Origin: Candidatus Paraprochloron terpiosi LD05
GTDB taxonomy: Bacteria > Cyanobacteriota > Cyanobacteriia > Cyanobacteriales > Prochloraceae
DNA length: 64,000 nucleotides
Assembly: GCA_018141785.1 (NCBI GenBank)
Contig: CP073341.1
Span: 2,837,261-2,901,260, forward strand
Reading direction: 5' to 3'
In this document: positions 8,392-58,250 of the stretch, in pieces
Position numbering within the stretch: position 1 is the stretch's first letter
Layout: every line of letters starts with the position of its first letter
Notes under the pieces: model-generated
Told to the model about the DNA's origin: nothing
Databases searched by the model: none
The model's input: only the letters and a program-made list of their open reading frames with translations
Made by a program: the position numbers and the translations under genes

Positions 8392-8437
8392 GAGCTAATC
8401 ATACTAATTTCATACACTAATTATTTTAAACATAAAT

Positions 8438-8480: not shown

Positions 8481-8529
8481 GTCTTTACCATTGAGGTTTG
8501 TCTCTTTTAGCTTAATTACTTACAGGTAA

Positions 8530-9018: not shown

Positions 9019-9104
9019 CTTAAACTGTCTCCCTATTATTTTGCTAAATTTTCCTTAAAATGGATTGTTTTGCCAAAACTGGCGAGTAATCTAAATTCCT
9101 CAGA

Positions 9105-9623
9105 CTAGGCAACTGCGGCAGCAGCGCGATCGAAGTAGGTAGCAATTTCAGACATTAGATTGCTGCAATCGCCGGGGGTGATACCGTTGCGGTCGTTAGC
9201 AATAGCAATAGCAGCATCCTTCATTTTTTGAACGCCAACAGCCACGGAAGCGCCGGGAGTTCCCAAAGCCAAGTAGGTTTCCCGCAGACCGTTCAAGCAG
9301 CGATCTTCCAGCACGCTAGCATCGCCAGAATAAATAGCATAGGTTACATAGCGGAGGATAATTTCCATATCCCGCAAGCAAGCAGCCATGCGACGGCTGG
9401 TGTAGGCATTACCGCCGGGAGTAATCAACTGGGGTTGCTCGGCGAACAAGGAGCGAGCGGCGTTAGTAACAATAGCAGATGCGTTGCTGGTGATCCGGTT
9501 CACAGCGTCCATGCGCTTGTTGCTTTCGCTCACCATGGCGCTGAGAGCATCTAACTGAGAGGTGGAAAGAAATTCGCCTCTGGCATCAGCTTGAGAAACT
9601 ACCTTTGTGAAGGCGTCGAACAT
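9105..9623 (-). CDS. cpcB: Phycocyanin beta subunit
   Basis: 172 aa. [20 protein letters not shown]...[20 protein letters not shown]...GITPGDCS. Confidence 0.95.
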
Positions 9624-9911
9624 GTTGCAAATCTCCTAACTTTAACTTAGTTGAGCTTTGTTGTACTTTGATGGATGTAGGTTATTGGGCAAAAGTTTTG
9701 CTCACCTGCCCTTTAATAAAACTTTATTATCGGACAAAATGAAAAAACTGCCTATTTTATGAGAAACCCTCGTATCACTCGGGTCTTGCGGAGTTTGGGT
9801 TGACTTTCCACAGTTGTTTCTAGCCCCCAGGTAACTTTTATACAACGGTGTTGTGTTTTTATTTGTTACATATTGTTAATTTTCTGGGAGTACCCCGGTA
9901 AAAACCAAGAC

Positions 9912-10646
9912 CTAGAGACTGATAATCCCCCAAGCAGCAAGAGCAACAGCCATTGTACCCAGTCCTAAAACTGTCGCCCCAGCGATTGTCATTATTTTTG
10001 CAGCCAGGAGAACTGGTTTTGGCGGATAATAAGGGACTCCATCCATCTCATTATGAGCGAAGTAACCCAGGGAAATCAGTTGCTGGCGATGGTATTTCCC
10101 ATAGCGAGGCATCCGGGCAAATGGTAAATCTCCTTCAGGGCGCTGGGGCAAAATGCGCCGCCGTTGATAGGGAACAGTATCGTAACCAAAGTTGGTCATG
10201 TACTCCTTGCTATCCAGGAGAGCATCGATAAACCCTTCTAACCCTTTAGTAGCTAAAACAGTTGACCAGGCTAATTCTTCCCGTTGACTATAAACATCCC
10301 GTCCGAGAATGCGCTGAACACACATCCTGACGAAGCGATAGTTATTGTTGGTTTCGTAATTGCGTCGTCGGAAAGATTCCGAAAGAGCAAGTCCCCGAAT
10401 GAAGTCTCGCACCAAAATTTGACCGAAACGCAGTTGAGATTCTAAAAAAGTTTGGCGATTGCTTGCCAGAAGTTGTTGTTCGTTAAAAATTTGACGATAG
10501 GCAGCGGCGATCGCAACTTCGATTTCTCCTGCTGAGGGCAGGGTTTCCATAGAGTAAATCATGGGCTGCTCATCCCCAGGTACCTCATAGCCAGCTACCC
10601 GCTGGTTTTGAGTTGAGGGAGAATATTCGAGCATTGGTATTGCCAT
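9912..10646 (-). CDS. cpcL: CpcG-family phycobilisome rod linker with a C-terminal hydrophobic helix (CpcL type)
   Basis: 244 aa. It has a PBS-linker domain (AAYRQIFNEQQ...FIRGLALSESFRR...VQRILGRDVY). The C-terminus VLLAAKIMTIAGATVLGLGTMAVALAAWGIISL is a predicted TM segment. Confidence 0.85.
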   Translation of the reverse strand: MAIPMLEYSPSTQNQRVAGYEVPGDEQPMIYSMETLPSAGEIEVAIAAAYRQIFNEQQLLASNRQTFLESQLRFGQILVRDFIRGLALSESFRRRNYETNNNYRFVRMCVQRILGRDVYSQREELAWSTVLATKGLEGFIDALLDSKEYMTNFGYDTVPYQRRRILPQRPEGDLPFARMPRYGKYHRQQLISLGYFAHNEMDGVPYYPPKPVLLAAKIMTIAGATVLGLGTMAVALAAWGIISL

Positions 10647-10789
10647 AGTTGAGCCTCCTCAAAATATGATTCCGGCAAAAGAATTGAGTAAATGTACTCA
10701 ACTCTCTCTCAAGAGTAAAGGATGGAGTTAACCAAATTTGAATTTTGTAACAAATAGCAAAAATCCGTAAAAATAGTTGATAAACCTTG

Positions 10790-11539
10790 TCAATCGACTG
10801 CTGCCAATGCCAATTTCCGATCCAAATCAAAGAGGAAACCGTGGATATACTCCTCCGTCCACTCCGAACCGTATAACCGAGTAAACATACCTCTAGCGGG
10901 ATCCTTTGCCGCCCTGTAGTCGATGTAGCGTAACTGAGCTTCCCTAATTTTTGTCAGCCTTTGACTATTACTAGCGGCTTGGGCCTTTTTGACAAAATTC
11001 AGATAAACGTCCAGATAGTCTTTAAAAGCTGCAAACACCCGGGTTTGTACCACTTCTGTATCCTGGGTCCGAGTCCAGAGAAAAGCAGGAGAAAAGAAGG
11101 GTTGAGCTTCTTCTGGGAAATCCCCTCCCCAAGGCAAATATTCTTTATGTAAATTAAATACAGGTAGTAGTGGTTCAGTGTATTTTTTTTGATAATCTGG
11201 ATCGTGGAAAAGGGGCTGCATATCCAGAGCGATCAGGTGTCCTCCCGGTAAGGTTACCAAGTCCGCGCCAAAAAAAGGCAAGTCGTACTTTAGTTCCGGA
11301 AAGATAACAAAATTGAGTACCTGTAAAGATTTACCCCCCTGGACATGAGCTGCGCGGATTTGTCTCAGTTTCCCCGATTTAAAAGCGTGAGAAGTAGTGA
11401 CAACTTGTTCCAGTCTCTTCCCCTTCCCTGAAGTCCCCTCCTTCCGCTCAAACCCTGCCGGAATCGGATAGGGTTCCAAGTCGAGCCGATCCTGGAGAAC
11501 TGCAATGGCGTAATTTAAAAAAGGCTGATAGAGAGTCAT
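10790..11539 (-). CDS. pebB: Phycoerythrobilin:ferredoxin oxidoreductase
   Basis: 249-aa FDBR-family ORF, second in the pebAB pair. Its ATGA start overlaps the pebA stop. Confidence 0.85.
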
Positions 11540-12270
11540 CTTTTTCCCCCAGCTACAGCTAAAGGTACAGCGTCTTCAAACAAAAACTCGTAGAGGAAGC
11601 GGTCAGCCCACTCCGAACCGAAATAACTGCTAAACAGACCGTGAGCTGGGTCTCGCTCAGCGCTATACTGGTCGTATTCTTTTTGCGCTTTGACAATTTT
11701 CTCAATGTCAGTCGAGTCCGTCAACCTTTCAGCCCCATCTAGCAATTGCCAATATAAGTGTATATATTCTTGGTAAGCTGGGAATAACCTGGTAACTACT
11801 GTCTCAGGGTTAGTTTTGGCAAAGAGCAAGTATTTAGAAAAATACTGATTCGCATCGTAAAATTTCATTTCCAGGTTTTGCGCCAACTCATTATACTTAT
11901 CCCTAATGGGCGCCATTGGCTCGATATACTTATCTAGATAATCCTGTGTGCGGAATAAAGGCTGGAAATCCAGAACTACGAGGATTTTTTTCTTACCGAA
12001 GGATAAAAAGTCAATTCCCAACAGGGGTAGATCGTAATAGTGAGCTGGATAGATAACGCTATTAAATACCTGGGCAGTTTCCCCAGCATCAATATAGCTG
12101 TATCGAATTTTGCGCAATTGGGGACAGGAGTAGCACCAACTCTGAATCGTCGCCGGATTCTTGCCGCGATCGCTGATATTGGATTCTAATCCCGGAGTAA
12201 TAGGGCTACTACTGAGATCGAAGCGGCTAAAAAGCTCTTTTTCTAAAAACTCGCGAAAAGGCTGGAACAT
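11536..12270 (-). CDS. pebA: 15,16-dihydrobiliverdin:ferredoxin oxidoreductase
   Basis: 244 aa. IQSWCY...VLDFQPL...[30 protein letters not shown] matches PebA. Confidence 0.85.
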
Positions 12271-12721
12271 GAATTCTCGCTCGGATATTAAATATCCTTC
12301 CTAGGGTACATCACGAGCAGCGATCCTGTCTCAATCCTCTCAAACAAAACAACATTCTGTGAGGTAGTTGCTAGTACACAAAAACGTGAACAAACCTCAG
12401 CTAAGTTAGCAAAACCTGTTGTACTTAGGAAAAAGTTTTAAAAATACCGCACTACATGGTATCTTAAAAATGGTCATGGCCGTGAGATAACGTAGGTTGG
12501 TAATGGCCCTACCCCGGCTCAGGGCGGGCGATTCGATCAAGCGTGAAATCGCGGCGTAAGCCAAGCATAAACTAGGGCTTGGGTAAGCAGCCTTCGTTAA
12601 ATCTAAGTTCAGAAATGAGCTGAAAAGCGGATTTCCTGAAAAGGAGCTGATTGCGCAAGCAACCGCGTAAGCGTCCCAAGACAACTAAATCTAGGATGCG
12701 GGTGAGAGAAATCAAGTCCCG

Positions 12722-12747
12722 CCCCCGCCATTAATCAATGCCGGGGG
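12722..12747. repeat. Mini-palindrome P1 (26 nt)
   Basis: Exact CCCCCGCCATTAATCAATGCCGGGGG inside intron B1. Confidence 0.85.
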
Positions 12748-12895
12748 GATTGCAGACTCCTAATCTGACCACATTCAATTGTGAATTCAAGCAATCTTGC
12801 CGGGTTTGTCACCGGGGGGTGAAGCTGGTAACAGGGCGGAATCAGGCACGAAAGTGACCCTGCCGCTAATAGGGAGAGTCTATGGTGAACAGAAG

Positions 12896-12921
12896 CCCCC
12901 GCCATTAATCAATGCCGGGGG
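12896..12921. repeat. Mini-palindrome P1 (26 nt)
   Basis: Exact CCCCCGCCATTAATCAATGCCGGGGG inside intron B1. Confidence 0.85.
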
Positions 12922-14078
12922 TGGTAAGTGAACTGTCGTAAAAAGCTTCTAATCCGGGGGAGCACAGCGTTAAGTTTAGGGGTGACGCCCCTTTAATGGG
13001 TATCCCAACTGGTAATTGAAACCCCACCTACTCAGCCCTGAAGAGAGGTATCCCTGGGGGACCAGTGGGCGAATTGATGGCACCTAAAGACTCGGAACAA
13101 TCTTAGATTTGGCAACGTTGCAAAAACGTAGGTAACCACATAGGGTGGTAACTAAGAGAGAGTTAGACAAACTCAAACGGGAACTACGAATAGGACGCAG
13201 GAACGAAACGAAAGCTAGTAATAGTGGAAACGATTGCCTGCAATGAGCGAGACCCGAAGAAGTACTCGAAATTGTATAAGTCGCTTGATGAACCTGAAAA
13301 GGTTAGATACCACGCCAGAGATGGTGATGATGAAGCAGGCGGTCAACCGAGTAGAGGAAAATAAGGGAAAGGCGACGAAAGTTATCTAAGCCAGAAACGG
13401 AACCAAATCTGATAACGGACGTTGTCAATGGTGAAGATGGATTCGCATCCAAAAGACAGCCATAGCTCATAGGAGCCGTGTACGGTGAAAGCTGTAAGCA
13501 CGGTTCTGAAGGGGAGCTGGGGTTTAGCAATGAACTCCTTCGACCCTGTCAGAATAAACTTTCCTTCGGGAATGATAGTTTCGGCAGCTAGGATAAATAA
13601 ACGTCGTTGCGTATTGCCACAGTGGTAGCTTGAGTAGCCCCATGATGGGCTCCAAATTTAAAAAAGCGCTTAACTTTCGAGTTAAGCTTTGCAGGCAACT
13701 GCCTTTACTATTTCTAGTGATGCTATACTTATCTCAGATTTATGCAGCAATGTATAAGTTTGAGCAGGTTAAATGTTGCACAAACTCCCACGGATGAATC
13801 ACGTGGGCTTTGCTTTTAGTTCGGTAATATTGTTTTTTTATGGAGCCGAGCAGAGTTGAACTGCTGTCCAGACTGGGTATTGACTGTCCGCTCATTCACA
13901 GGTTTAGCCCATCTAACCCTCAGGGCGGGAACCATCCCTTATCCCGGATGACAGGATACTCTGGCAAAGTCTTAGCTCTTGAGCCTACCAGAGGAGGAGC
14001 AAGAGAGCATCCGTTGAGGTTTGGCCCGCAGCCCTTAACGGAGTCAGACTGCGAGCGCTCGAACCTGTTTAGAGGTTT

Positions 14079-14126
14079 TTAGGCAACAGCAGCTGCCTTA
14101 CGAGCAAAAGGAACGATGTTGTTCGC
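14079..14126 (-). other. tmRNA tag reading frame ANNIVPFARKAAAVA plus stop
   Basis: Resume codon GCG at 14126..14124 and TAA at 14081..14079. This is a typical cyanobacterial ANNIV.FAR-type tag. Confidence 0.85.
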
Positions 14127-14127
14127 A

Positions 14128-14971
14128 GTTAGTCGAGATAGGTAGACCCTTACAGGTTTTCCCCCTCACAGTACCGGGCGTGCAACTTTCAAAGCACCCG
14201 GCTCCTGGTGTATCATCCTACTCCCGGCGCGTTAATTCCCATTTCTAGGACTGGTTTTTCAGGACTATTCCTACCGTCAGGCAGTCAAGTGGTTTTATTA
14301 ATCCTTAAATTTGACCAATCATCCCCGCCATTAGCGATTAGCCATAACGCTTTCAAACTTATGGGGAACATTGGGATTCAAGTCCCAGTTTCAGATTACA
14401 AATCCTATACGAATAGATTTGTAATTACGTTTCACCCTCTCTTACGTCAGCTCCCCTTTCGGGTAGACATTTGTCTATGAGTCAGGTTATACAGTCGTGT
14501 TTTCCCTCGGACTTTCGTCCATGACTCCATTCGCTTCTTAAGAGAGTCCTTTCTCCCCAGGGAATTGGTTCACCTTACGGCTTTCCTACGATTTCTCGAC
14601 CCTGTGGAGGTTTACTCGTTTCACAATAGTTAGATACGCCCGGGTTAGATTGCTCCTTACAACGGCGATGTGGTAGCTACCGCAGTCTAAAAATGAGTAG
14701 ACTTTTCACATATATCGCGTGCCATTTTGGCTAGAGTTTATCAGGTTGCTTAAACTCTTTCTCAAGTGACGTTGCTGCAAGCTTCGCTTTATGCTCACCA
14801 TACCGGACTTCCCATAGACTGTACCTGCTTACAACCTAGCAGGCCTTTAGCCACTTAACCCTCTAGCTGTGAAACACCCCCATTACTGGGACTGCCCCTT
14901 CGGGCTGGGACTGGAGAAACTACTCCCCGTGGGACTTTCGTTCACTAACTACTGCGACTTCCGAGTCGCAC
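14128..14971 (-). mobile_element. ORF-less group II intron, family C copy C1, inside ssrA
   Basis: The 5' end is GUGCGACUCGGAAGUCGCAGUAG (from 14971). Domain V is GAGCCGGGUGCUUUGAAAGUUGCACGCCCGGUAC at 14171..14204. Domain VI ends ...CCUAUCUCGACUAAC at 14128. A hairpin loop CAUUUU (14690..14695) is complementary to the last 6 nt of exon 1 (AAAAUG). No sense ORF of 60 aa or more is in the track. Confidence 0.85.
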
Positions 14972-15204
14972 CATTTTGTTTGAGCCTTTGATTTGCGAGA
15001 GGAGACTCACTCTCGACCTGAATCACAGGATAGCTTTCGCCAACCTGTCGAAACCGTTACGGCCCCTAGATTTCTTTCTCTATCCAATATCTTATAACAC
15101 TTGAGGGGTATTTAACAAGTTATTTTTATTAAGAATTGTAAATATTGTAAATATAGCTACAATTATCTACCAGAGTCAAAAATAGACCAAAAAGAAGCCG
15201 ACAG

Positions 15205-15681
15205 ATGGATTGTAGCCAGATTCAATTTTGCGTTGACAAATCAAAAATAGACCTGGAGCAATGCCTCGAATTATTCAACCTTAGTGCTTTTTGGGCGCAA
15301 GGGAGAAAAAAAGAGGATTTAGAAATAGCGATACGCTACTCGGATCCTGTAGTGAGCGTGTGGAACCAAGAGCTGATGGTAGGTTTTGCCAGAGCTACCT
15401 CCGACGGTATCTACCGCGCTACTATTTGGGATGTAGTCATCCATCCAGAATATCGGGGAGCCAGGTTAGGGCGCAAATTAGTAGAAACGGTTTTGAGCCA
15501 TCCAAAGGTGAACCGAGTAGAGCGAGTGTACTTGATGACTACCAATCAACAAAGCTTTTACGAACGAATTGGTTTTCTACCAAACCAAACTACTACTATG
15601 ATCCTCTACAACTCCTCCCCGAGCAGGGAGGTACTCATACCGCAGACTTGGCAAGAAGAAAGGAACACTCTAGCCGTGTAA
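15205..15681 (+). CDS. GNAT family N-acetyltransferase
   Basis: 158 aa. [36 protein letters not shown]...FYERIGF acetyl-CoA binding motif. Confidence 0.8.
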   Translation: MDCSQIQFCVDKSKIDLEQCLELFNLSAFWAQGRKKEDLEIAIRYSDPVVSVWNQELMVGFARATSDGIYRATIWDVVIHPEYRGARLGRKLVETVLSHPKVNRVERVYLMTTNQQSFYERIGFLPNQTTTMILYNSSPSREVLIPQTWQEERNTLAV

Positions 15682-15689
15682 GAGGCTGG

Positions 15690-16320
15690 TTTAGGTTTTC
15701 GGCTGTTAAATCCAAAACAGTCAAATCTGACTGGATGATTTCCAATAAGTTCTGACACAGCAACAATTTCATCCCCGGAGAAAAGTCCAGTTGTTGGTTA
15801 AAGGACTTAATAGCAGAGGATGTGGACAGGGTAGAAGGAGTTCATTGCTGATTGCGTAAGCTTTGCGTAAGCAACCGCCCTTTCGGGAAATTCGTCTTTC
15901 AGCTTATTTCTAAACTTAGATTAAACGGGGGCTGCTTACCCAGAGCTAGTGTTTATTCTTTGGCTTACGCCGTGATTTCGCCGGAAACGAATCGCCCGCG
16001 GAGGCAGTCTGTTGCCTCAAATCCACGGGTTCGCTCCAGATACTGGCATCACAGTCCACATCGATCTGAATCCAAACACGACTGCTGGGCTTGGGCAATA
16101 CAATCCCGTTCTTCTGCCGGACTGTCGCAGAGGTCGGACAAAATGAGCTGATACAAGCTAATTAAACTGGTGAGAGGCGATCCCAATTCGTGGAAAGTCC
16201 GCGCCAGAAACCCAGCTTTATACTGGCCCATTTGGGCGGCCATAAGGTATCGCAGCTGAGTTTATTTTAGTTGCTCTTTGAAGGCTTGAATCTCGTTCAT
16301 TGGAAATTATAATTTCAAAT
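15690..16320 (-). pseudogene. Histidine kinase remnant (frameshifted; interrupted by a mini-intron; upstream end abuts the tnpB element)
   Basis: H-box FLARTFHELGSPLTSL lies in ORF 16049..16243. After a frameshift comes IQIDVDCDASIWSEPVDLRQ. SSAIKSF (N-box-like) resumes only after the 173-nt insert. Confidence 0.5.
15825..15997 (-). mobile_element. Family B mini-intron derivative (5' ~150 nt fused to the last ~25 nt; no domain V)
   Basis: Minus strand GGGCGATTCGTTTCCGGCGAAATCACGGCGTAAGCC...GCTTACGCAATCAG joins directly to CAATGAACTCCTTCTACCCTGTC. Both ends are colinear with B1's termini. Confidence 0.6.
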
Positions 16321-16378
16321 TTCCCTGACGCCGGATATACCAATCCTTACCCGTCCATACTAAATTTGAGCCTTCAGG

Positions 16379-16518
16379 TACTATAGCGCGCCCCGCAGGG
16401 GAAGGGGTAAAGGGTGAAGGGTAAAGGGTAAAGGTTCGTGAAAACCATGTACACCGGTGGTTTGAGCACTTGTTCATTTTTTTAATTTGTAAATACCCCG
16501 GCGCGCACTGCTATAGAG
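16379..16518. repeat. Imperfect inverted repeat enclosing a GGGTAAA/GGGTGAA heptamer array, at the tnpB 3' end
   Basis: CTATAGCGCGCCCCG (16381..) pairs with CCCCGGCGCGCACTGCTATAG (16496..). Heptamers lie at 16405..16434. It could be the IS right end / guide-RNA region, or a separate element. Confidence 0.4.
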
Positions 16519-16534
16519 ACACTCTGCACGAAAT

Positions 16535-17766
16535 TTACTCAATGACCTTTTTGACATACTCCCCGCGCACCCGCGACGGGGATTCTGGGGTCAAGCAGCG
16601 AATGCAGGCAGCAGCCCAACTGACTTCACCTAACCCACAGGTTGATGCCCCAACCCGCTTAATATTGATAGCCGCATTCTCGTCCCGGTCATGTTCTGAC
16701 CCACAGGATGGACACTGCCAACGTCGCACTCTCAAATCCAATTTCTCCAATACATGACCACAGCAATGACAAGTTTTCGAGGAGGGGAACCAGCGGTCTA
16801 CATAAACCACCGCTTTCCCCTTCTTCTCGGCCACCCATTCTAGGATGGTCAAGAAGGTGCTCAAACCCAAATCGGAGACTTTTCTCCCCCAAAGTCGCTG
16901 CATCCCTTTCAGATTCAATGTTTCAAAATAGAGCACATCAAATTGGTCGGTTAGCCAATGGGAGAGCTTCCAAAACCAATCTTCTCGTCGATGTGCAATA
17001 TCCTCATGACGACGAGCCAGATGTTTCCGGGCGCGTTCGCGGTTATTTGACCCCTTCTGCTTGCGGGATAAATCTCGGTTCGCCTTCCGAATCTCTGTTA
17101 GAGATTGTTTGAAGAACAACGGCGCATCAATACTGAAACCTTCAGAGGTCGAGAGAAATTGCTTCAGTCCAAAATCAAAACCAGCGGTTTGACCCGTCTC
17201 GACGCTAAGAATTGGCTCAGAAGCTGTGTCCACCGTGACAAACAGAAACATCTCCCCCAAGGGAGTGCGTTTGATTGTTACGGTCTTCACTTTTCCCTCA
17301 ATTTCTCTAGATTTCCAGAACCGATACACCCGGTCGCCAATCTTGATGCGATTGCCATCGAGGAACTTGTATCCGCATTGCTTCAGGGTGAAGGATTTGT
17401 ATTTCCGAACTTTCTTAAAACTCGGGGGACGAACCCCTTGGTCTTTGTGCTTGAAAAACAACTGATACGCCCTCTCAATGCGCTGACAAATGTCTTGCAC
17501 CGCTTGAGAACCCACTTGCTGCCAGAAAGCGTTACGTTTCCGCAGCTTGGCAATATGCTTCTGGAGTTTGGCGCAGTTCAAGTGCTTGCCAAACATCCGG
17601 TAGTACCGACATGGATTGCCCTATGGGGCCTTCAGACCCATAGGGCCTGAAGGCAAACCAGATGTAGAGCAATGCAATGGTTGTAAATCCTCCCTGAGGC
17701 ATTGACGATGCGTTTCAGGTGACGATTGCGCTGGTGGTTGTAAAACTTAAACTTCAGTGTTTTCAT
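16535..17766 (-). pseudogene. tnpB: IS200/IS605-family TnpB (OrfB), split by a 53-nt insertion with frameshift; no tnpA
   Basis: The N-terminus MKTLKFKFYNHQRNRHLKRIVNASGRIYNHCIALH is in ORF 17632..17820. The remainder, MFGKHL...RuvC-like...CHCCGH...CPSCGSEHDRDENAAINI, is in ORF 16535..17596, in another frame. Upstream hairpins CCCCGTCGCTGACTTCGCGGGG and GCGGCTTTAGCCGC resemble an IS605 left end. Confidence 0.8.
17609..17661. repeat. 53-nt insert in tnpB with interleaved complementary segments (A-B-A'-B')
   Basis: Minus strand GCCTTCAG-GCCCTATGGG-T-CTGAAGGC-CCCATAGGGC sits between codons ...IALH and RYYRMFGK. Confidence 0.5.
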
Positions 17767-17914
17767 GTGGATGATTATATCCGGTTCACGGCGGCTAAAG
17801 CCGCACGAGTCGCTTTTCATCCCCGCGAAGTCAGCGACGGGGCTTTCAAGCTCCCGGATTTTTTCGTAAAACTCTACAAATATCGTTAAAGTTTCCCAAT
17901 CCCTTTTACCAACA

Positions 17915-18166
17915 TGTCAAATTCAGTTGTCAAGGTCCGGGGTAACTCCGAGGTTTCCCCACTAGCTTTGGCGGTTTTACCCGTTTTAACTGGCGGGTCA
18001 GGTAGAATTGCTAGGTGTTTTCAGCGGGTTTCCCTGCTTAAATTGTCACCTAGTTTTTAGCCTTCACGCCCGGGGGGGTTAAACCAAGCTTCAGTTTATG
18101 TGTGGCAAACGAGCCGCGCTCTCTGCGAGTCTCCGAGCGGCTACTTTCCCTGGAAACGAGCCGCAC
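17915..18166 (-). mobile_element. Group II intron 5' fragment, family D (D3), fused to the 3' end of prmC
   Basis: Minus strand GTGCGGCTCGTTTCCAGGGAAAGT[P4]CGCGGCTCGTTTGCCACACATAAAC...CGTGAAGGCTAAAAACT...GGGAAACCCGCTGAAAAC is colinear with the fragment at 26084. No domain V follows. Confidence 0.6.
18113..18141. repeat. Mini-palindrome P4
   Basis: GCCGCGCTCTCTGCGAGTCTCCGAGCGGC. The same string lies at 21088..21116, at the homologous position of another intron 5' fragment. Confidence 0.7.
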
Positions 18167-19064
18167 AATAGGAACGATAAGCTAGGGCAAAACGGTCAAT
18201 TCCGGCTAAGTCAGGGAAAATATTTATTTTTGTATAGCTGCCTTGTTCTTCAAGCATTGCAGCAACTTGCTCTCCTTGTCCTACCATTATTTCAATTAAC
18301 CAAACTCCCCCAGGGATGAGGTAATCTGGAGCAGTTTGGATCAGGTAGCGGATATGTTCCAGACCGTCTGCACCACCCGAGAGAGCTAAATGGGGTTCGT
18401 GTCGGGCTACTTCTGGTTGTAACTGGGAAAATAAGGTCGTAGGAATATAAGGAGGGTTGGATACCATACCGCTAAATTTCCCTTTCAGGTTTGCCAGAGG
18501 AGACCACCAGGAACCTTGAGAGAAAGTGATTCTCGAACTCAAACCGAGATTGACGGCATTTTCTTTGGCGATGGTCAAAGCTGCGTCGCTGCAATCCGTA
18601 GCATAAATTGAAGCATTTGTCAATAATTCCGCCAGACCGAGGGAGATAGCCCCGCTTCCGGTGCCCAGATCGACCCAGTTTCCCGAACTAATTTCCACCT
18701 CCGAGGGTTCTTCCACTACCTTTGCTACTAAGTCAATCAACAATTCAGTTTCCGGACGGGGAATGAAAACATCCGGGGAAACTTTGAGTTGAAAATGGCG
18801 CCAAGGTGCTACTCCAGCTATATATTGAACAGGCAAACTCTCCTGGAGACGCCGTCTCCATTGCTGGGTTAGCATTGACAGGGGTAGGGAGAGTCTGATT
18901 TGGTCTCGCTCTCTAAAAGATGCCATCGAGAGTGAAAGTTTGTCAACACCCGCCACTAATTCCAGGAGCCAGTCCACCTCTACTGGGGCTATATCAGAGG
19001 CGATCGCTGCTTCGCGCGCCTGTCTCCGCCACCAATAAAGTTTCTCCCCTGATACAATCACCAT
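18141..19064 (-). CDS. prmC: Release factor glutamine N5-methyltransferase; last 8 codons intron-derived
   Basis: 307 aa. VFIPRPETE, GTGSGAI and the NPPY motif (VSNPPYIP). The C-terminal ...AYRSY|CAARFQGK* reads into the GTGCGGCTCG intron 5' end. Confidence 0.85.
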   Translation of the reverse strand: MVIVSGEKLYWWRRQAREAAIASDIAPVEVDWLLELVAGVDKLSLSMASFRERDQIRLSLPLSMLTQQWRRRLQESLPVQYIAGVAPWRHFQLKVSPDVFIPRPETELLIDLVAKVVEEPSEVEISSGNWVDLGTGSGAISLGLAELLTNASIYATDCSDAALTIAKENAVNLGLSSRITFSQGSWWSPLANLKGKFSGMVSNPPYIPTTLFSQLQPEVARHEPHLALSGGADGLEHIRYLIQTAPDYLIPGGVWLIEIMVGQGEQVAAMLEEQGSYTKINIFPDLAGIDRFALAYRSYCAARFQGK

Positions 19065-19816: not shown

Positions 19817-19818
19817 AA

Positions 19819-20160: not shown

Positions 20161-20186
20161 ACTGACCAATGACCTCCCAGGACGAA

Positions 20187-22271: not shown

Positions 22272-24765
22272 ATTAGAGTCGAGGGAGATGTTGCCACCTC
22301 GCCCCTCTCCTACGAACTGTACGTGAGACTTTCACCTCATACAGCTCAGGTGCTCCTATGTCTTCACGACGCGCTTTACGAGTCCGTCCTTAATGCGCTT
22401 GCGATGTATTGCTTGCGCCTGGTGACATTCTCGGTGGAGGGCAACTAGATTCTTGGGTTTCCAGTTGTTATGATTGCCGTCTTTGTGGTGCAACTCCACA
22501 GCTCCATCCCTCTCCATGAACTTACGGTTGCAATGCGGACACGTACCCTTCTGTCGCTTAATGGCGTTAGCGGTTGGGCCACTATATAGTTTAGAGTTGC
22601 GACCGACCCAATAGGAAATATTCCCATTGAAGGGTGAGGCATCACCTTTGACCATTACGTGGTCATTGACTTTCCAGGGAACTGAGGGAAAGGCTTTCTC
22701 TATCTGGGCTATTGTAAGTTGGCGTTTTGCTGCTCCTACTAGGGGTTTCCCTTTGATAGCCAGACGTCTTGCTTTCTCCGCTTCCTTAATTGCCATCCTG
22801 CGTTTTTCAGCCCTCAGCTTACGCCATACCCAGTGACTGAGTGACCATAGCGAGTGCTTGTTCATGTCGCAGTTTTTGTGGTACTGCCTCCAACCTCGGA
22901 CTTGTGACTCTATCCTTTTCAGGCGAGCATCCGTGGTTGCGCCATTCTTCCAAGTGGTCTTTATCTTGGCCTTGATGTCCGCATAATTCTCAGAGCTCGG
23001 TGTAGATTTGAAGACTCCACGGGAATTGACACGGAAGCGCCACCCCAGGAAATCGAACCCATCCGTAGCTTTACTCACCTTAGTCTTAGTTTCGTTAATT
23101 CGTAGCCCTCTGGACTTTAGGAATTCATCGATATTCTCCCGTAGCCTCTTGGTATCAGCTCCGGGTTTACAGATAAAGACCGCATCATCTGCGTAACGTA
23201 TACCCCTTATGAGAGTGCCACCTTGGCGTCTCCTTTTCCATTGATTCAACCCCAGGTTCTCAAATCCATCTAGAGCGATATTGGCCAGTAGAGGTGAGAT
23301 AACCCCACCTTGGGGGGTACCCTTCATACTGGAGGGATATTCACCACGAACGCCTGCTTTTACAGCTTTCTTTAACCCCTTTAGAGCTTCGATTGGTAAG
23401 ATTACTCCATTGAGCATGACCTTGTGGTCAATTTCGTCAAAGCATTTACTGATATCTGTTTCCAGAATCAGCTTGTCTTTACCATTTGCTTGGCTGTTTA
23501 GGTTCACGAAAATCAGCTTTTGTGCGTCCGCAGTACAGCGACCGGGTCTGAAGCCGTAGCTCCGTTCTCCGGCGGTTGCTTCGTAGGCAGGCTCGGCTGC
23601 TAACTTAAGCAGTGCTTGCCATGCCCTGTCGGCCATTGTAGGGATGCCTAATCCCCTTGTTTTGCCGTTTGGCTTCGGGATATTTACCCTTCTTAGTTGC
23701 TGGTGTTTCCAGTGGTACCAGTGCTTATTCAGCCTTTGGCATAACACTAGACGCTCATTGGTAGAAAGCGCTGTTTTTCCATCAACTCCGGGGGACTTAC
23801 GCCCTGTGTTCAGCTGTGTTACTTGTTTGACGGCCAGAGCTTGAGCTGCACGACTCTGTAATAGGAGCCGTTGTAAACGTTTGACTTTGGCTTTGTGCTT
23901 GTCCTTTTGCGCTTTGAAGATACTCCGCTGTAACCGAAATACCTGACCTCGAAATCTCTTCCATGGCAGGTCTTTCCAGACATCGTCAGCCTTCCGGCCA
24001 ATCTTCCCCGCCATTAGCAGAACTGCTAGGTGGAGCCTCAAGGCTTTTAGACTGCGGTATTCGATTGGAGTCTGGTTAGTGATATTCACAGTTTTGACCT
24101 TCATTAGTCGCTCTGATAATTACATTGGGTATCTTCTCTGTAGAAACCATCAGGCAGTTACGCCTTCTCTTACCCTCGCTCTTCCGGTAGGCCGTTAATC
24201 GGGCGACCCCACCATCTCACATATCAGGGCTTGGAATCCCTTGTTTTAATGGAGGTTGAGCGAGTTTTTACTCGTTCCGAATGACCTATTGTTACGAACC
24301 CTTGGGACTCATCCTTTGACCTATCACCAACTCAGGAATGTAAATATGCTCCACGGATTTTACGAGTTTCTTTCGGTGTCTTTTCTGCTCTATAGCGGCT
24401 TGGCAGTGTCTCTCGTTAGGTCTTTTCACTGATGATTCACGTTGTTATCCCGGTGTTCTCCCTATTAGCGGCGTAACCATCGAACCGCTCGATAGTCCGG
24501 TCCCGCCCTGCTGCCAGCTTCAGCCTGATGATTAATCTCACTGTGGCCAGATAAGGATTCACATGATTCCTTCATGGGAGAGGCTTGGTAACACGATTTC
24601 TGGCCGTGCCCTCACTCTCATAGTTCATTCAGTTGTCAGGGTTCGGTATCGTTTGTCCGTTTTCGTCCCTTTCGGTGGTTTAGATTATCGGAGACGTTGT
24701 CCCGGGAACCCTGCTCCTGCTTATGTTTGGCTCACGCCGCGACCTTCACAGGAAACGAGCCGCAC
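22272..24765 (-). mobile_element. Full-length group II intron, family A (A1), with an intact IEP
   Basis: The 5' end is GTGCGGCTCGTTTCCTGTGAAGGTCGCGGCGTGAGCC (from 24765). Domain V is GAGCTGTATGAGGTGAAAGTCTCACGTACAGTTCG (about 22313..22347). The 3' end is ...CCCTCGACTCTAAT at 22272. No mini-palindrome insertions. Confidence 0.9.
22356..24104 (-). CDS. Group II intron reverse transcriptase/maturase with a C-terminal HNH endonuclease domain
   Basis: 582 aa. RT motifs (GTPQGGVISPLLANI, IRYADDAVF), a maturase region, and HNH (CPHCNRKF...ELHHKDGNHNNW...LHRECH). Confidence 0.95.
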   Translation of the reverse strand: MKVKTVNITNQTPIEYRSLKALRLHLAVLLMAGKIGRKADDVWKDLPWKRFRGQVFRLQRSIFKAQKDKHKAKVKRLQRLLLQSRAAQALAVKQVTQLNTGRKSPGVDGKTALSTNERLVLCQRLNKHWYHWKHQQLRRVNIPKPNGKTRGLGIPTMADRAWQALLKLAAEPAYEATAGERSYGFRPGRCTADAQKLIFVNLNSQANGKDKLILETDISKCFDEIDHKVMLNGVILPIEALKGLKKAVKAGVRGEYPSSMKGTPQGGVISPLLANIALDGFENLGLNQWKRRRQGGTLIRGIRYADDAVFICKPGADTKRLRENIDEFLKSRGLRINETKTKVSKATDGFDFLGWRFRVNSRGVFKSTPSSENYADIKAKIKTTWKNGATTDARLKRIESQVRGWRQYHKNCDMNKHSLWSLSHWVWRKLRAEKRRMAIKEAEKARRLAIKGKPLVGAAKRQLTIAQIEKAFPSVPWKVNDHVMVKGDASPFNGNISYWVGRNSKLYSGPTANAIKRQKGTCPHCNRKFMERDGAVELHHKDGNHNNWKPKNLVALHRECHQAQAIHRKRIKDGLVKRVVKT

Positions 24766-24785
24766 GTAGAGTCGAGATAGGTAGA

Positions 24786-24811
24786 CCCCCGCCATTAATC
24801 AATGCCGGGGG
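24786..24811. repeat. Mini-palindrome P1 (26 nt)
   Basis: Exact copy. It replaces the loop TTACAGG found in C1 (ggtagaccc-ttacagg-ttttccccc). Confidence 0.85.
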
Positions 24812-25031
24812 TTTTCCCCCTCACAGTACCGGGCGTGCAACTTTACAACTCTGTTGAACGGGGAACATTGGGCCTCAAGTCCAAGTTTCGGATTACAAAT
24901 CCTATACAAGCGGATTTGCTTTACGTTTCACCCATTCCTACGTCAGCTGCTTCGCAATCCCATTACTGGTTTCCTACGGCGATTGCCGACCCTGTGGAGG
25001 TTTACTCGTTCCGCAATAGTTAGATTCATCC

Positions 25032-25059
25032 GGGACGCCTTCGGCGGCACCTTCGGTGT
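25032..25059. repeat. Mini-palindrome P2
   Basis: GGGACGCCTTCGGCGGCACCTTCGGTGT. It is absent at the homologous site of C1. Confidence 0.75.
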
Positions 25060-25452
25060 TAGGCTGCTCCTTACCCCGACGGCTTGGTGTCTACTTGATA
25101 AAAGTAACAATTTATCTTTCAATTGCCGCATGCCTTAACTTTCTGAATATTTATTCAGAAAGTTGCCAATGGGACTAGACGGCTAGTCCACTAACTACTG
25201 CGATTGTCTAGTCGCACGCTACTATACTATATAGTACCCTATTTTATCACAAAGATACCAAATTTGGCAACCCGACGAGGGAAAATTATCTCGCCTTGAG
25301 TTTGCCGACCGGCTCTAAACTAGGTCAATCAGAAGACAGCCCAGTACTCCAACCATAATATTTGATTTGGTTGGTGGTGTAGGGCGAGTGAGTCGAGGTC
25401 GAGGTGCATCCCCTGACCAATGCTGAAAGCGAGGGAAGGGGATAGCGCCGAG

Positions 25453-47687: not shown

Positions 47688-48088
47688 GTTGAAGTAGAGT
47701 GCTCTGTTACCAAAGCGACCCTCTTCTTAGAACCGTGCGTGCGATTCTCACCGCACACGGCTCCCCAATTTCATCGCTGTTAAGCGCTCTTTCTAAGAGA
47801 TGCCCTCTTTGATTCGGTCCTTGTGAACCTCCTGGTATTGATGGCATTCCCTGTGCATAGCTTTGAGATTACGGCGTTTCCAGTTATTGTGGTCTCCATC
47901 CGCGTGGTGCAATTCCACTATATCGCTAAGCAGAAACGGTTCATTGCAATGAGCACATCGAAGTTTCTGTCTTTTCATAGCCTTTCCGGTCGGACTATCC
48001 GCGTATAGTTCAGACTTCCGGTTAACCCAGTAAGTCGTGTTCCCGTCATACGGGCTTGCGGTTCCCTTAACCATTACGTGGCTGTTTA
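47688..48088 (-). mobile_element. Family E group II intron 3' fragment (E2) with the HNH end of its IEP
   Basis: Domain V is GAGCCGTGTGCGGTGAGAATCGCACGCACGGTTCT. Domain VI is ...AGAGCACTCTACTTCAAC, ending at 47688. ORF 47793..48074 has the HNH motif (CAHCNEPF...ELHHADGDHNNW). Confidence 0.6.
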
Positions 48089-48170
48089 TCGAGATAGGTA
48101 GACTCTTACGGGTTTTCCCCCTCGCAGTAACGGACGTGCAACTTTCAAAGCATCCTGCTCCTGGTGTTTC
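48089..48170 (-). mobile_element. Family C 3' fragment (C3: domain V plus a truncated domain VI)
   Basis: Minus strand GAGCAGGATGCTTTGAAAGTTGCACGTCCGTTAC...GTCTACCTATCTCGA, abutting ...TAAACAGCCACGTAATGGTT of the E2 IEP gene. Confidence 0.45.
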
Positions 48171-49379
48171 AGCTTACTCACTCTAGTAACTATCGCTTTT
48201 GTCTTATCCTTACAGGTTTTCAGACGGACTCTACTAGTGATTTTTGTCCTCTTTAATCCCTGCCCGCCTCTGTTTGCTTAATTAGAGTCGAGGGAGCTGC
48301 CACGCAGCTCGCCCCTCTCCTACGAACTGTACGTGAGACTTTCACCTCATACAGCTCAGGTGCTTCTATGCCAATGGGAGGCGCGCTTTCGTAGACCGTC
48401 CTTAATACGCTTGCGGTGTATCGCTTGCGCCTGGTGACACTCTCGATGGAGGGCAACTAGATTCTTACGTTTCCAGTTGTTATGGTTGCCATCGATGTGG
48501 TGCAACTCCACGGCTCCGTCCATCTCCATGAACAATCGGTTGCAGTGCTGACATTTGCCCTTCTGTAGCTTAATGGCATCAGCGGTTGGCCCACTATATA
48601 GTTTGGAATTCCAACCAACCCCCGCCATTGACTTTCCAGGGAATTGCTGGGAAAGCTTTCCTTTTTTGCTCTGATGTGAGCTGACGCTTCGCTGACCCCT
48701 GTGGCTTTTTGCCAAAAGTTGCCATCTGTCGTGCTTTCTCTGCTTCCTTTTGAGCCATCCTACGTTTTTCAGCTCTCAACTTCCGCCATACCCATTGTTT
48801 GAGCGACCATAGCGAGTGCTTACCCATATCGCAGTTTGAGTGATATTGCCTCCAGCCTCGGACTTGTGACTCTATCCTTTTCAGACGAGCTTCCGTGGTA
48901 GCACCACAATTCCTGAGTTGCTTTAACCTTGGCCTTTATGTCTGCATGATTCTCGTTACTCGGTGTGGATTTGAATACTTCTCTTGAATTAACGCGAAAG
49001 CGCCATCCCAGAAAATCGAATCCATCCGTAGCTTTACTCACCTTCGTCTTAGCTTCATTTATCCTTAGCCCTCTGGACTTTAAGAATTTGTCTATATCTT
49101 CTCTTAACCGCGTGGTGTCGGCTTCGGGTTTACAGATAAAGACCGCGTCGTCTGCGTAACGTATACCCCTTATTAGGCTCCTTGAGCGTTGCCTTTTCCA
49201 TTGGTCAGACTTTGACCCATCACCAACTCAGGAATGTAAATATTCTGGTCTACCTTACGAGTTTCTTTCGGTGTCTCTTCTGCTCTTTAGCGGCTTGGCA
49301 GTGTCTGCGTTTAGGTCTTTTCTCAGATGATTCACGTTAAGTTATCCCGGTGTTCTCCCTGTTAGCGGTGTTACCGACG

Positions 49380-55796: not shown

Positions 55797-58250
55797 TTTA
55801 AGGAGTCGGGTAAGGTTCAGGAATCGCTTCCATCCCCTCCCCTAAGAACCGGACGTGACAGTTTCCTATCATCCGGCTCAAGCCTCACTTCAAGCCCTGC
55901 TTGGAATTTTCTTGAATGTACCTGCTTATGACACGTTTTATGTAGGTGTTGAAGGTTGTCGATATCGTCAGAACCTCCATCCCTTATAGGTACTATGTGA
56001 TGGGTTTCGATTTCCTCCCCGTTGAAGAGGTGGTCGTGGCAGATTGGGCATTTCCAATCTTGCGACTTTCCAACGTTTTCGTATTTTGAGCCTTTAGACC
56101 ATATAATCTTGCCCGACTTCGTTCGCCGCTTTGACCAATATTCCACCTGTTCGGGGTCGTCTGGGGAATAAGCTCCCTTAACTTTGATATGTCTTTCAAT
56201 CGGGACAGTTTTTATATTGTACAAGTTATGTACTATTCTTTTGCCCCTCCGGTCATTACCTTCGTAGAAAAACACCCAATTTCTTTCGCCCGTTGTTCGG
56301 AAGTACTTTTCTTTTACCCATTTTCGTGATTTTTTGGGGTGTCGTCTTTTTGCCCAACGCCAGAGGTACCACCATACTCGGTTGTGTATATATGAAAAGG
56401 TTTCTTTGCTGCATACTCCTCTGTAGTAATTCGCAAAACCTCTGAGAAGCGGTTCTATCTTGCGGATGACCTGTTCTGGGGTTTTTGTTTTCATGCTGTC
56501 GATGGTTGCACCGACTTTCTTGCAGAGTTCTAATACCTTTGACTTCTGTGGCTCAATGATTAGTTTATCCCGTAGGATTTTATCTTCTCCTTTCACCTCA
56601 TAGTGTCTCAAGTTAAACCCCAGGAAATCAAATCCGTCTCTTAAATGTACTATCCGCGTCTTCTCATCACTAATCTCAAGACCTCGTTCTGACAGCCATT
56701 GATTTATCTGGATTTTCAATTCCTCCAAGGATTCCTTGTCCTTTGCAGTGACTACGAAATCATCTGCGTACCTGATGACGCCTACCTTTGGGTTACATTC
56801 TTTGATATATGTTTCTAACCCGTGGAGTCCGATATTTGCTAACAAAGGACTTATTACGCCACCCTGTGGAGTTCCTTTTTCAGTTGGGCTATATCCCTTC
56901 TTACTCTCGATAGATCCAGCTTTTAACCATCCATCAACCAAGGTATTTTCCCTGACTGCTGTCTGGATGGATTTATGGTCAATGTTGTCAAAGAAGCCTT
57001 TGATATCAGCGTCCAAAACCCATTTATCGTGCTTTCGCCATGTTCCGGTCTTCGTTTTATAGTCGCCGCGTAGTCTACTGAAACATTGTCCAATAGCATC
57101 TAGGCAACTTCGACCGGGTCTGAAGCCATAGGAGTTAGCTTCAAACTTGGCCTCCCATTCGGGTTCCAGTGCATTTTTGACTATTGCCTGAGCGACTCTA
57201 TCTCTGATGGTTGGGATTCCAAGAGGACGTTTCTTACCATTCGCTTTAGGAATGTATACCCGTCTGGCAGGTTTTGCCTTGGGCATTTCCCAGTTATTGG
57301 CAAGTTTCACACGCTGTGCTGGGGTGTCTATGACCTCCTTATCTACCCCCGCTGTTCGTTTTCCGGTATTTACCTGTGTGATTTGTCTGATGCTCAGTAA
57401 TAGGTTCGACCGACATCTTTTCATCAGTTTCTGTAAAGACAGTAATCGTCTCCACAGTCCAAGCTTTTGGGCACGAAATATCCGACCGCGTAAATTCCTA
57501 ACAATCTTTTTTGTGCGACGCCAGTTAATGTCGCCCCACTCAGTTAATTGTCCGTTCAGTCCATTTTCGGGAATTTCTTCCGTCATCTAACTTTTCCGTT
57601 CGTTTGGTTTCTAGTTGTCTTCAATTTTCGTATGAGACCCAAGTGAAGTCTGCTATTCCTTTCGGTCAAGGGCAAATTTTGAACCCCTATCTCCCTCATT
57701 ACAAGGGAGCATTCGCTTTTTCACTCATCCTTTACCCTCCAGAGAATTCTGCCTCCGTTACCTTTGGCTTACTAACGGACTCGACCCTCCGTTAGACTCT
57801 GTAGGGCTTATCCTGTTGTTTCGCTTAGTTTTCTTAACTGGTTAGGCTGGTTCCTTTCCCCCGGTAGCGCTCTGGTTCCCCGAATTGATAATACTCCAGT
57901 ATCAATTCTTCCCGAACTGATAACCATATAGTGTCAGTTCCTGTCTACTTGCCATTTTGGCTAAGGCGTATCAGAGATAATTTCGCCTTTCATGGGTCAC
58001 GAGGTTTATACGGAGGGATTCGTTGAAGGCGAATCCTTTTACTTCACTTTCGTTCAGCCTTCCAGCTATTTCCCTCTTGCTCCTGACCCTTAATCTCTAG
58101 GGCTTCGGTTACTTTCGGGGTCTGCATTCCAACGGTTTTATTACTTACTCCCGCCGTGACCGGACTCATAGAGTCTTTTCCGTGAGGGCTAGGGGTGGAA
58201 CTCCCTAGGGGACTCGATGTCCCGTACTAAACGACCAGTTCAGGCCGCGC
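55797..58250 (-). mobile_element. Full-length group II intron, family F, with an intact IEP; boundaries approximate
   Basis: Domain V is GAGCCGGAUGAUAGGAAACUGUCACGUCCGGUUCU at 55845..55879. Domain VI has a bulged A (CCCGA*CUCC) and an end near 55796..55799. The 5' region GCGCGGCCUGAACUGGUCGUUUAGUACGGG starts at 58250 and is non-canonical (GCGCG). Confidence 0.8.
55817..57586 (-). CDS. Group II intron reverse transcriptase/maturase with an HNH endonuclease domain
   Basis: 589 aa. GTPQGGVISPLLANI, IRYADDFVV, a maturase region, and HNH (CPICHDHL...THHIVPIRDGGSDDIDNLQHLHKTCH). The C-terminal tail EPDDRKLSRPVL is a translation of domain V. Confidence 0.95.
   Translation of the reverse strand: MTEEIPENGLNGQLTEWGDINWRRTKKIVRNLRGRIFRAQKLGLWRRLLSLQKLMKRCRSNLLLSIRQITQVNTGKRTAGVDKEVIDTPAQRVKLANNWEMPKAKPARRVYIPKANGKKRPLGIPTIRDRVAQAIVKNALEPEWEAKFEANSYGFRPGRSCLDAIGQCFSRLRGDYKTKTGTWRKHDKWVLDADIKGFFDNIDHKSIQTAVRENTLVDGWLKAGSIESKKGYSPTEKGTPQGGVISPLLANIGLHGLETYIKECNPKVGVIRYADDFVVTAKDKESLEELKIQINQWLSERGLEISDEKTRIVHLRDGFDFLGFNLRHYEVKGEDKILRDKLIIEPQKSKVLELCKKVGATIDSMKTKTPEQVIRKIEPLLRGFANYYRGVCSKETFSYIHNRVWWYLWRWAKRRHPKKSRKWVKEKYFRTTGERNWVFFYEGNDRRGKRIVHNLYNIKTVPIERHIKVKGAYSPDDPEQVEYWSKRRTKSGKIIWSKGSKYENVGKSQDWKCPICHDHLFNGEEIETHHIVPIRDGGSDDIDNLQHLHKTCHKQVHSRKFQAGLEVRLEPDDRKLSRPVLRGGDGSDS

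Follow-up and report, generated by a model that had tools for sequence, protein, structure and literature searches.

Evidence for a tmRNA gene split by an ORF-less group II intron in a cyanobacterium related to Prochloron

We investigated a 64,000-nucleotide (nt) stretch of contig CP073341.1 from Candidatus Paraprochloron terpiosi LD05, referred to below as the window. A preliminary description had proposed that ssrA, the gene for transfer-messenger RNA (tmRNA), by which stalled ribosomes are rescued, is split there by a group II intron without an open reading frame (ORF). Our analysis bears this out: the feature is almost certainly an ssrA gene on the minus strand interrupted by such an intron, as judged from exon matches that abut in a tmRNA model, a match of the insert to the Rfam model RF00029, colinear intron-less alleles, and covariation in intron domains I to III. 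All of the tmRNA and intron sequences quoted earlier were found on the minus strand at the positions given for them. Unless noted otherwise, all features of ssrA and its intron described below are on this strand.

The exons were located with a profile hidden Markov model (HMM) derived from 114 uninterrupted cyanobacterial tmRNAs, with the window left out, which was searched against the whole 64 kb with nhmmer. Only two matches were obtained, and their model coordinates abut without gap or overlap. Exon 1 (15066..14972; 95 nt) corresponds to model positions 1 to 95 (90 bits, E = 3e-27) and exon 2 (14131..13841; 291 nt) to model positions 96 to 388 (278 bits, E = 2.5e-84), which at the sequence level establishes both the identity of the exons and the exact junction. 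Exon 1 carries the 5′ acceptor strand GGGGCCG with G3, the 5′ strand of P2, and pseudoknot 1 (PK1), and ends in a single-stranded stretch terminating in ...CAAACAAAAUG. Exon 2 contains UAACU, the tag reading frame, PK2 to PK4, the T-arm, and the acceptor strand CGGCUCC followed by the discriminator A. Joining the exons in silico, as had been suggested, led ARAGORN to report a complete tmRNA; the join of 15066..14972 to 14131..13841 gives a 386-nt molecule with the tag ANNIVPFARKAAAVA, encoded by a frame from GCG to UAA at 14126..14079.

The region just before the resume codon sets the tmRNA reading frame. The insertion had been placed in the single-stranded stretch ahead of the tag frame, and the exon model coordinates and the colinear intron-less alleles support this placement, with the insertion point between the G and the U of ...CAAAAUG^UAACUGCG..., between PK1 and the resume codon. 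The 3′ splice site had to be moved 4 nt further upstream. The preliminary description had the intron end 1 nt before the resume codon, after an insert of 844 nt, with exon 2 starting at 14127; the insert is 840 nt long (14971..14132), exon 2 starts at 14131 (UAACUGCG...), and the resume codon GCG (14126..14124) lies 5 nt 3′ of the junction. We rejected a 3′ splice site between 14128 and 14127, since it loses the conserved UAAC, turns the tag called by ARAGORN into AQTKCANNIV..., leaves the branch-point A 11 nt away, and contradicts the end of the Rfam domain VI alignment, the HMM coordinates, and the intron-less alleles. Only the corrected join restores the conserved ...AAAAUG^UAACUGCG... and the tag ANNIVPFARKAAAVA, and the predicted ligated-exon junction reads ...CAAACAAAAUG^UAACUGCGAAC...

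Once joined, the predicted exons are without decay, with an intact tag frame, G3.U pair, and T-arm. GGGGCCG and CGGCUCC-A form a 7-bp acceptor stem that includes the G3.U pair, and ARAGORN calls both the 5′ and the 3′ tRNA domains. When assessed against an RNAalifold structure from 115 cyanobacterial tmRNAs, the spliced RNA forms 70 of 72 consensus nested pairs (97%, compared to a median of 96%), and 24 of the pairs formed connect exon 1 with exon 2. The same tag was found with ARAGORN in Synechococcus PCC 7002 and Thermosynechococcus, and it is also present in the Prochloron allele described below. The 3′ CCA is not encoded by exon 2; of relevance here, a gene of the CCA-adding enzyme/poly(A) polymerase family is located at 50106-51359 (minus strand).

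Standard finders would probably miss a gene split in this way, according to the preliminary description, and this proved correct. Run on the window, ARAGORN reported only tRNA-Pro and tRNA-Ala, the unspliced locus likewise gave no tmRNA, and the Rfam tmRNA model RF00023 scored 37.5 bits on the unspliced genomic sequence, under its gathering threshold of 47. This sub-threshold match is a misalignment that takes intron domain V as the 5′ acceptor strand.

Because the tmRNA model coordinates delimit the exons, the intron boundaries are fixed independently: the intron is the 840-nt remainder between abutting coordinates (14971..14132; 5′ GUGCGAC...CUCGAC 3′). Its ends match the group II consensus of 5′ GUGYG and 3′ AY, with GUGCG at 14971..14967 and ...GAC ending at 14132. 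RF00029, which covers domains V and VI, matches at 14206..14132 with 51.4 bits (gathering score 40; E = 3.4e-7 for the whole window). The intron is of the IIB, or chloroplast-like, type, a kind common in cyanobacteria. In line with the earlier statement that no ORF of 60 codons or more lies on the intron strand, the longest stop-free stretch is 40 codons, and tblastn with the window's intron-encoded proteins revealed no remnant of such a protein. An intron lacking the reverse transcriptase (RT)/maturase is an ORF-less derivative, a recognised variant (PMC4424553).

All six domains could be assigned. Domain I (14614..14966; intron nt 6-358) is closed by a 13-bp stem (nt 15-27 with nt 339-351), which was read from the sequence and is also present in the minimum free energy (MFE) fold, and its long-range stems are kept by compensation relative to two related Nostoc introns. 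The stem of domain II (14553..14610; nt 362-419) is retained via 4 compensatory pairs in the same comparison, and the joining segment J2/3, AAAGGA (14552..14547), follows directly. Domain III (14437..14546; nt 426-535) has a basal stem, CUCUCUUA/UAAGAGAG, and an inner 5-bp stem, both kept by compensation. The domain IV region (14207..14432; ~nt 540-765), whose boundaries are inferred, is short and has no reading frame. In the RF00029 alignment, domain V occupies 34 nt (14171..14204), and domain VI (14135..14167) has its bulged branch-point A at 14139 and a GAC tail, the alignment ending at 14132. The bulged A proposed earlier is confirmed by this alignment; it is flanked by G.U pairs, and 7 nt are left to the 3′ splice site. 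Domain V had been called canonical, which holds for its AGC triad, AC bulge, and GAAA loop, but not for an A.A mismatch at the second pair (A2.A33 in the pair table) and two U.U pairs that adjoin the GAAA loop (U12.U21 and U13.U20). The single-sequence MFE fold of the intron has a z-score of −2.6 and does not recover domain V; its use was limited to local hairpins and to the stem that closes domain I.

We next consider recognition of the 5′ exon. The preliminary description had assigned exon-binding site 1 (EBS1) to a hairpin loop containing CAUUUU and intron-binding site 1 (IBS1) to the last 6 nt of exon 1, and this assignment withstood scrutiny. The hairpin AGUCUA-CUCAUUUU-UAGACU (14684..14703) presents CAUUUU at 14695..14690 (intron nt 277-282), a perfect 6-bp complement of AAAAUG (14972..14977) at the end of exon 1. 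CAUUUU occurs once in the intron, and ~5% of shuffled domain I sequences contain it. The homologous hairpin loop of the Nostoc HK-01 intron, AAGAAAG, pairs 7/7 with its own 5′ exon, CUUUCUU, so that the predicted EBS1 loops of the ssrA and Nostoc HK-01 introns covary with their respective 5′ exons; in a related N. edaphicum intron, the homologous EBS1 loop pairs less well with its own exon. A second pairing was assigned as a probable EBS2-IBS2. The probable EBS2, UGAGC (14793..14797; intron nt 175-179), is at a position homologous to UUAAC of the Nostoc introns and can form 5 Watson-Crick pairs with the probable IBS2, GCUCA (14981..14985), which occupies exon positions −14 to −10 and overlaps the 3′ strand of PK1. 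No EBS3-IBS3 contact was identified.

Searches for relatives of the intron yielded few sequences. Blastn against plasmids returned only the two distant Nostoc relatives, RT/maturase-encoding group II introns whose domain I matches nt 58-120 of the ssrA intron, whereas blastn against the ~120 ssrA loci listed returned only an identical contig from the Logan collection, and an exact-pattern scan of metagenome contigs for domains V/VI of the ssrA intron gave 0 matches. The first 552 nt of the ssrA intron, comprising domains I to III and the start of domain IV, align end to end with both Nostoc introns. RNAalifold on the three introns predicted 134 pairs, with compensatory change in 45. By itself, the ssrA intron forms 110 of 127 consensus pairs (87%), compared to 35-47% when the 3′ partners are slid by 1 to 3 columns, and 42 of its pairs are kept via changes on both sides. 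With three sequences in the alignment, the structure is partly fitted to the data; nevertheless, compensatory stems are clear in domains II and III, as are the long-range stems in domain I. Taken with the RF00029 match, this comparison establishes from sequence the identity of the intron and an intact predicted fold. One of the two relatives, at 3436-5830 of the Nostoc edaphicum plasmid pNe_2 (NZ_CP054694.1; L134 in our set), encodes a protein and sits inside a repeat (GTTTTAATTCCTTTACCCCTCACGGGGATGG^intron) of a clustered regularly interspaced short palindromic repeat (CRISPR) array beside cas1, with more array repeats 3′ of the intron. The tandem U.U arrangement can also be drawn, by eye, in domain V of this N. 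edaphicum intron.

We then compared the locus with those of other cyanobacteria, in which the preliminary description had anticipated intron-less alleles. The closest is that of Prochloron didemni (L003), with 95.8% identity to exon 1 at 5210-5303 and 90.4% to exon 2 at 5304-5593; its ssrA is contiguous across the insertion site at 5303^5304. Two uninterrupted metagenomic alleles (L125 and L132) are identical there and read ...CAAACAAAATGTAACTGCGAA. Window positions 13835-20766 are colinear with the Prochloron locus and include ssrA, a GNAT acetyltransferase gene, a methyltransferase gene, tRNA-Pro, and others, with protein identities of ~65-85%, so that this is the ancestral ssrA locus, in a different genus-level relative. 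Accordingly placed, this locus is, on synteny, the chromosomal orthologous ssrA of a phycoerythrin-containing cyanobacterium related to Prochloron. For a wider view, we scanned contigs from one genome per species with a tag pattern, which gave at least 120 stretches and constitutes a sample rather than a census. Among the matches listed, ARAGORN found uninterrupted ssrA in 110 loci, with one standard copy per stretch; six more have an uninterrupted junction but are truncated where the locus ends, three are chance matches in other genes, and one lies at a contig edge. The latter (L100) stops at UGCGAAC and not at the intron site, and is uninformative. A metagenome scan with the end of exon 1 recovered six uninterrupted ssrA alleles and three chance matches. 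In addition, a Logan contig (L001; 2 samples) contains the GNAT gene, exon 1, and the first 117 nt of the intron, all identical to the window.

Since the ssrA intron has no protein of its own, its splicing would probably be helped by the maturase of another intron in the genome. Encoded within the window are two intact proteins that combine RVT_N, RVT_1, and GIIM domains and share 33% identity: one of 582 amino acids (aa) at 24104..22356 and one of 589 aa, with an additional HNH domain, at 57586..55817. The 589-aa protein matches the TeI4h protein of Thermosynechococcus elongatus (PDB 6ME0; E = 6e-126) and is the closest relative in the window of the proteins of the Nostoc introns (43-58% identity), making it the best in-window candidate for the maturase. 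Both it and the Nostoc intron proteins fall into the TeI4h-like lineage. A cognate relationship between the ribozyme that carries this protein and the ssrA intron was considered and is not shown by their patchy alignment.

Eight RF00029 matches at gathering thresholds were found in the window, one of which is the ssrA intron, and two further copies of the ssrA-type intron were recognized by similarity. The copy at 48088..48179 is 5′-truncated with a degraded domain V and scores 38.1 bits with RF00029 at 48088-48162, under the gathering score. In the pair table, its domain V differs by one compensatory pair and two broken pairs; this copy is decaying, and we rejected it as evidence of selection. 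The other copy is a 447-nt relic (25217..24771, minus strand) with an internal deletion, which starts with GTGCGACTAGAC, ends with GGGTCTACCTATCTCGAC, and no longer has the domain V 5′ strand. For most of its length, the ssrA intron itself has no second copy in the window. The odd features of domain V are common to the three copies at three loci and therefore predate the spread of this intron type; such features would presumably be compatible with reverse splicing.

We consider it likely, although well short of assured, that the intron is spliced to give a working tmRNA. This reading is favored because the exons are pristine, the ribozyme fold is intact, the exon-binding pairing is good, and maturases are available. 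We infer that the locus is transcribed as a single unit and spliced in vivo, and likewise where the maturase comes from and that the product functions. In the mechanism we propose, the ssrA locus would be transcribed as a single ~1.4-kb precursor, in which the folded intron would hold exon 1 through EBS1 (CAUUUU) and EBS2 (UGAGC). The 2′-OH of the bulged A in domain VI would attack the 5′ splice site, and the freed exon 1 would in turn attack the 3′ splice site after ...CUCGAC. The ligated exons would then be trimmed by RNase P and 3′ processing and receive CCA, and the resulting 386-nt tmRNA would tag stalled proteins with ANNIVPFARKAAAVA. It is reasonable to expect, as was proposed at the outset, that unspliced RNA would be inactive, that a maturase would be needed in trans, and that trans-translation would depend on splicing.

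Several observations weigh against a spliced and working gene. The covariance-model check of the insert succeeded for domains V and VI but not for the rest, as the Rfam D1-D4 models gave no match to the intron alone even at E values up to 10. The A2.A33 mismatch replaces the usual A-U under the catalytic triad, and domain V is fully paired in all seven other Rfam-scoring introns of the window, unlike in the ssrA intron. Both other copies of the ssrA-type intron in the window (25217..24771 and 48088..48179) are dead. No protein-encoding parent of this intron type was found in the 64-kb window, and the similarity between the ssrA intron and the ribozyme carrying the 589-aa protein is weak and patchy, with an unreliable 5′ end. 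No intron was found in ssrA elsewhere, either in ~116 genome loci among the matches listed or in the 6 metagenome alleles, and because the ssrA intron was found in one genome only, conservation is unusable as an argument for its function. Finally, at least some cyanobacteria can do without tmRNA, so that inactivation of ssrA would be biologically possible.

Recent inactivation of the gene is the main rival explanation, which we judge unlikely but take seriously. By this explanation, the intron is unable to splice, or never spliced well enough, ssrA is a recent pseudogene, and the cell lives without trans-translation or on another rescue factor. The lack of an intron-encoded protein, the three non-canonical pairs of domain V, one of them in the catalytic-triad helix, and the decay of the sister copies all fit this explanation, as do the abundant frameshifted intron proteins and nested intron debris of the window and the presence of the insertion in this genome alone among the ~120 ssrA loci listed. 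The authors of a study of Trichodesmium also warn that intron-interrupted genes may be pseudogenes until shown otherwise (PMC4649490). However, the exons show none of the decay that might be expected (70/72 pairs, tag frame, G3.U, and T-arm), domains I to III keep 87% of their consensus pairs, 42 of them compensatory, and EBS1 and EBS2 together form 11 bp with the exon; in T. elongatus, a good EBS/IBS match was taken as a sign of efficient splicing (PMC2882425). The domain V oddities are older than the spread of the family and so presumably compatible with reverse splicing.

The remaining explanations are less probable still. A second, uninterrupted ssrA elsewhere could supply tmRNA and leave this locus free to carry an intron, and the genome was examined over 64 kb; ARAGORN, Rfam, and the profile HMM found no second tmRNA match within this window, the interrupted gene is at the ancestral syntenic position of the Prochloron ssrA, and the 110 cyanobacterial loci among the matches listed have one standard ssrA per fetched stretch. 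We regard such a redundant copy as improbable. It is more doubtful yet that the exons are freed but left unligated and held together by P1 and P2 as a two-piece tmRNA, like those of permuted genes. Base-paired two-piece tmRNAs are an established gene form (PMC11915505), and the 24 consensus pairs bridging exon 1 and exon 2 could serve this purpose, but nothing in the sequence points to hydrolytic processing over ordinary splicing, and the intron has all elements for both splicing steps. It also counts against this explanation that natural two-piece tmRNAs are broken 3′ of the tag frame and not 5 nt before the resume codon. An assembly artefact, with a repeated intron misplaced between the ssrA halves, could be imagined in a genome rich in repeated introns, at which short-read contigs break, but it is hardly credible given that an independent Logan contig (L001) spans the exon 1-intron junction, that the intron borders coincide exactly with GUGCG and AC and leave a perfect tmRNA once joined, and that most of this intron copy has no counterpart elsewhere in the window.

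We rate ssrA as a new host gene for group II introns, the insertion point as a new site for them, and the split gene as a new ssrA architecture. In agreement with the earlier statement that no group II-interrupted ssrA was known, we found no report of one in the searchable full-text literature, although its coverage is incomplete and absence there is not proof. A 2025 tmRNA database of 97,179 sequences distinguishes standard, group I-intron, and permuted forms and does not mention group II introns (PMC11915505). Its intron form comprises 883 unique sequences with group I introns in the T-loop; introns outside the T-loop were possibly missed systematically, and 33,537 bacterial genomes are without a tmRNA assignment (PMC11915505). 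Whether the locus is a fourth tmRNA gene architecture that is the cell's only ssrA, with trans-translation reliant on a retroelement-derived ribozyme and a borrowed maturase, is a question on which we see the evidence as evenly balanced.

The ssrA genes with group I introns are similar in that they contain a self-splicing-type intron, produce mature tmRNA only after splicing, and are missed or miscalled by finders. Their introns are 200-400 nt long and occupy four subsites in the T-psi-C loop, within the tRNA-like domain, whereas the intron described here would use lariat chemistry with a branch-point A and EBS/IBS recognition and lies in the mRNA-like part. Permuted ssrA, found in alpha-proteobacteria, some beta-proteobacteria, and marine cyanobacteria, likewise has a non-standard architecture whose mature RNA is not simply colinear with the gene; it yields two pieces by tRNA-type processing without splicing, while the gene described here has the standard order and a retroelement-type intron to remove.

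Closer parallels exist among group II introns. TeI4h interrupts tRNA-Ile(CAU), a single-copy gene of T. elongatus (PMC2882425), and, like the ssrA intron, is a cyanobacterial IIB-type intron with good EBS/IBS pairing in a gene for a small, structured, translation-related RNA; it differs in having its own protein and in its tRNA host, where the intron here has no protein and resides in ssrA. In the same organism, ORF-less introns (TeI3) are spliced and mobilised by the proteins of other introns (PMC2882425). Chloroplast-like introns of cyanobacteria occur in housekeeping genes, and ORF-less introns are otherwise rare in bacteria (PMC4424553). In Trichodesmium, 10 of 17 introns spliced in vivo have no ORF (PMC4649490). 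The genome of Trichodesmium erythraeum resembles the one studied here in its richness in introns, in having ORF-less introns in conserved genes that are self-splicing or use foreign maturases, and in nested introns (PMC4649490); its hosts are protein-coding and splicing was shown in vivo, whereas here the host is a non-coding RNA and splicing is predicted. Plastid tRNA introns, such as that of trnK with matK, are also found in structured RNA hosts that need efficient splicing, and their maturase often serves several introns, but they are organellar, ancient, and vertically inherited, in contrast to a bacterial intron known from one genome so far and belonging to a family with mobile-element behaviour, as seen in its several copies and nested insertions. 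With this locus, tmRNA joins the few small structured RNAs that host a bacterial group II intron, with the tRNA-Ile of T. elongatus as the closest precedent.

Splicing would also have consequences for the cell, as the level of working tmRNA could be set by splicing efficiency, and should the cell have no other ssrA, a universal quality-control system would hinge on splicing and probably also on the maturase of a selfish element. The host site CAAACAAAAUG^UAACUGCG is the same in uninterrupted alleles of other lineages, and because it is conserved across many cyanobacteria, the insertion sequence could serve as a homing site. The locus is a concrete case of a tmRNA missed by census-type searches with ARAGORN or an Rfam threshold, and annotation pipelines should permit split tmRNA matches.

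Around the gene, two possible transcription signals were noted on the minus strand. A promoter-like TTGACT-18 nt-TATATT at 15150..15179, ~85 nt 5′ of the mature tmRNA start, matched the consensus at 10/12 positions in a scan; it is a consensus match only, such sites being no more frequent in the window than in shuffled sequence. A terminator-like hairpin followed by a T run at 13668..13687, ~155 nt 3′ of the ssrA end, is likewise a consensus match only. Between the conserved flanks, ~13 kb of DNA is present in the window (~620-13835) beyond what is found at 5600-8000 of the Prochloron locus, comprising glyS, pebA, pebB, genes for a phycobilisome linker and two phycobiliprotein subunits, HEAT-repeat lyase-like genes, and cpeT. 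The absence of this phycoerythrin cluster from the Prochloron locus fits the lack of phycobilisomes in Prochloron. On the other side of ssrA, a TnpB/IS605 OrfB-type gene (16535-17596, minus strand) with a Cas12f-like TNB domain lies as an insertion between genes that are neighbours in the Prochloron locus.

The pebA-ssrA spacer holds a second ORF-less group II intron-like element (~12520-13549, plus strand), which matches RF00029 with 57.4 bits at 13471-13549, runs convergently with ssrA, and stops ~290 nt short of the 3′ end of that gene. We found no GUGYG start for this element, and its 5′ part (GGGCGATTCG...GAAATCGCGGCGTAAGCC) resembles the sequence that follows an intron ending at 22272. 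That intron is full length (24765..22272, minus strand), starts with GTGCGGCTCG..., encodes the intact 582-aa RT/maturase, and begins 5 nt after the relic copy of the ssrA-type intron; the sequence past its 3′ end resembles the 5′ part of another intron, which points to a nested arrangement. At 39800-48800 (minus strand), five RF00029 matches and a sub-threshold sixth are accompanied by frameshifted or truncated RT/maturase/HNH frames, which suggests introns inserted into introns. A GC-clamped imperfect palindrome, CCCCCGCCATTAATCAATGCCGGGGG or its reverse complement, recurs at 12719-12750, 12896-12925, and 24775-24805, with one copy taking the place of the domain VI loop in the relic intron, and may be a miniature repeat element. 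Farther along, the Yfr1 small RNA, which is conserved in cyanobacteria, was identified at 33565-33628 (minus strand; RF01116, 61.7 bits).

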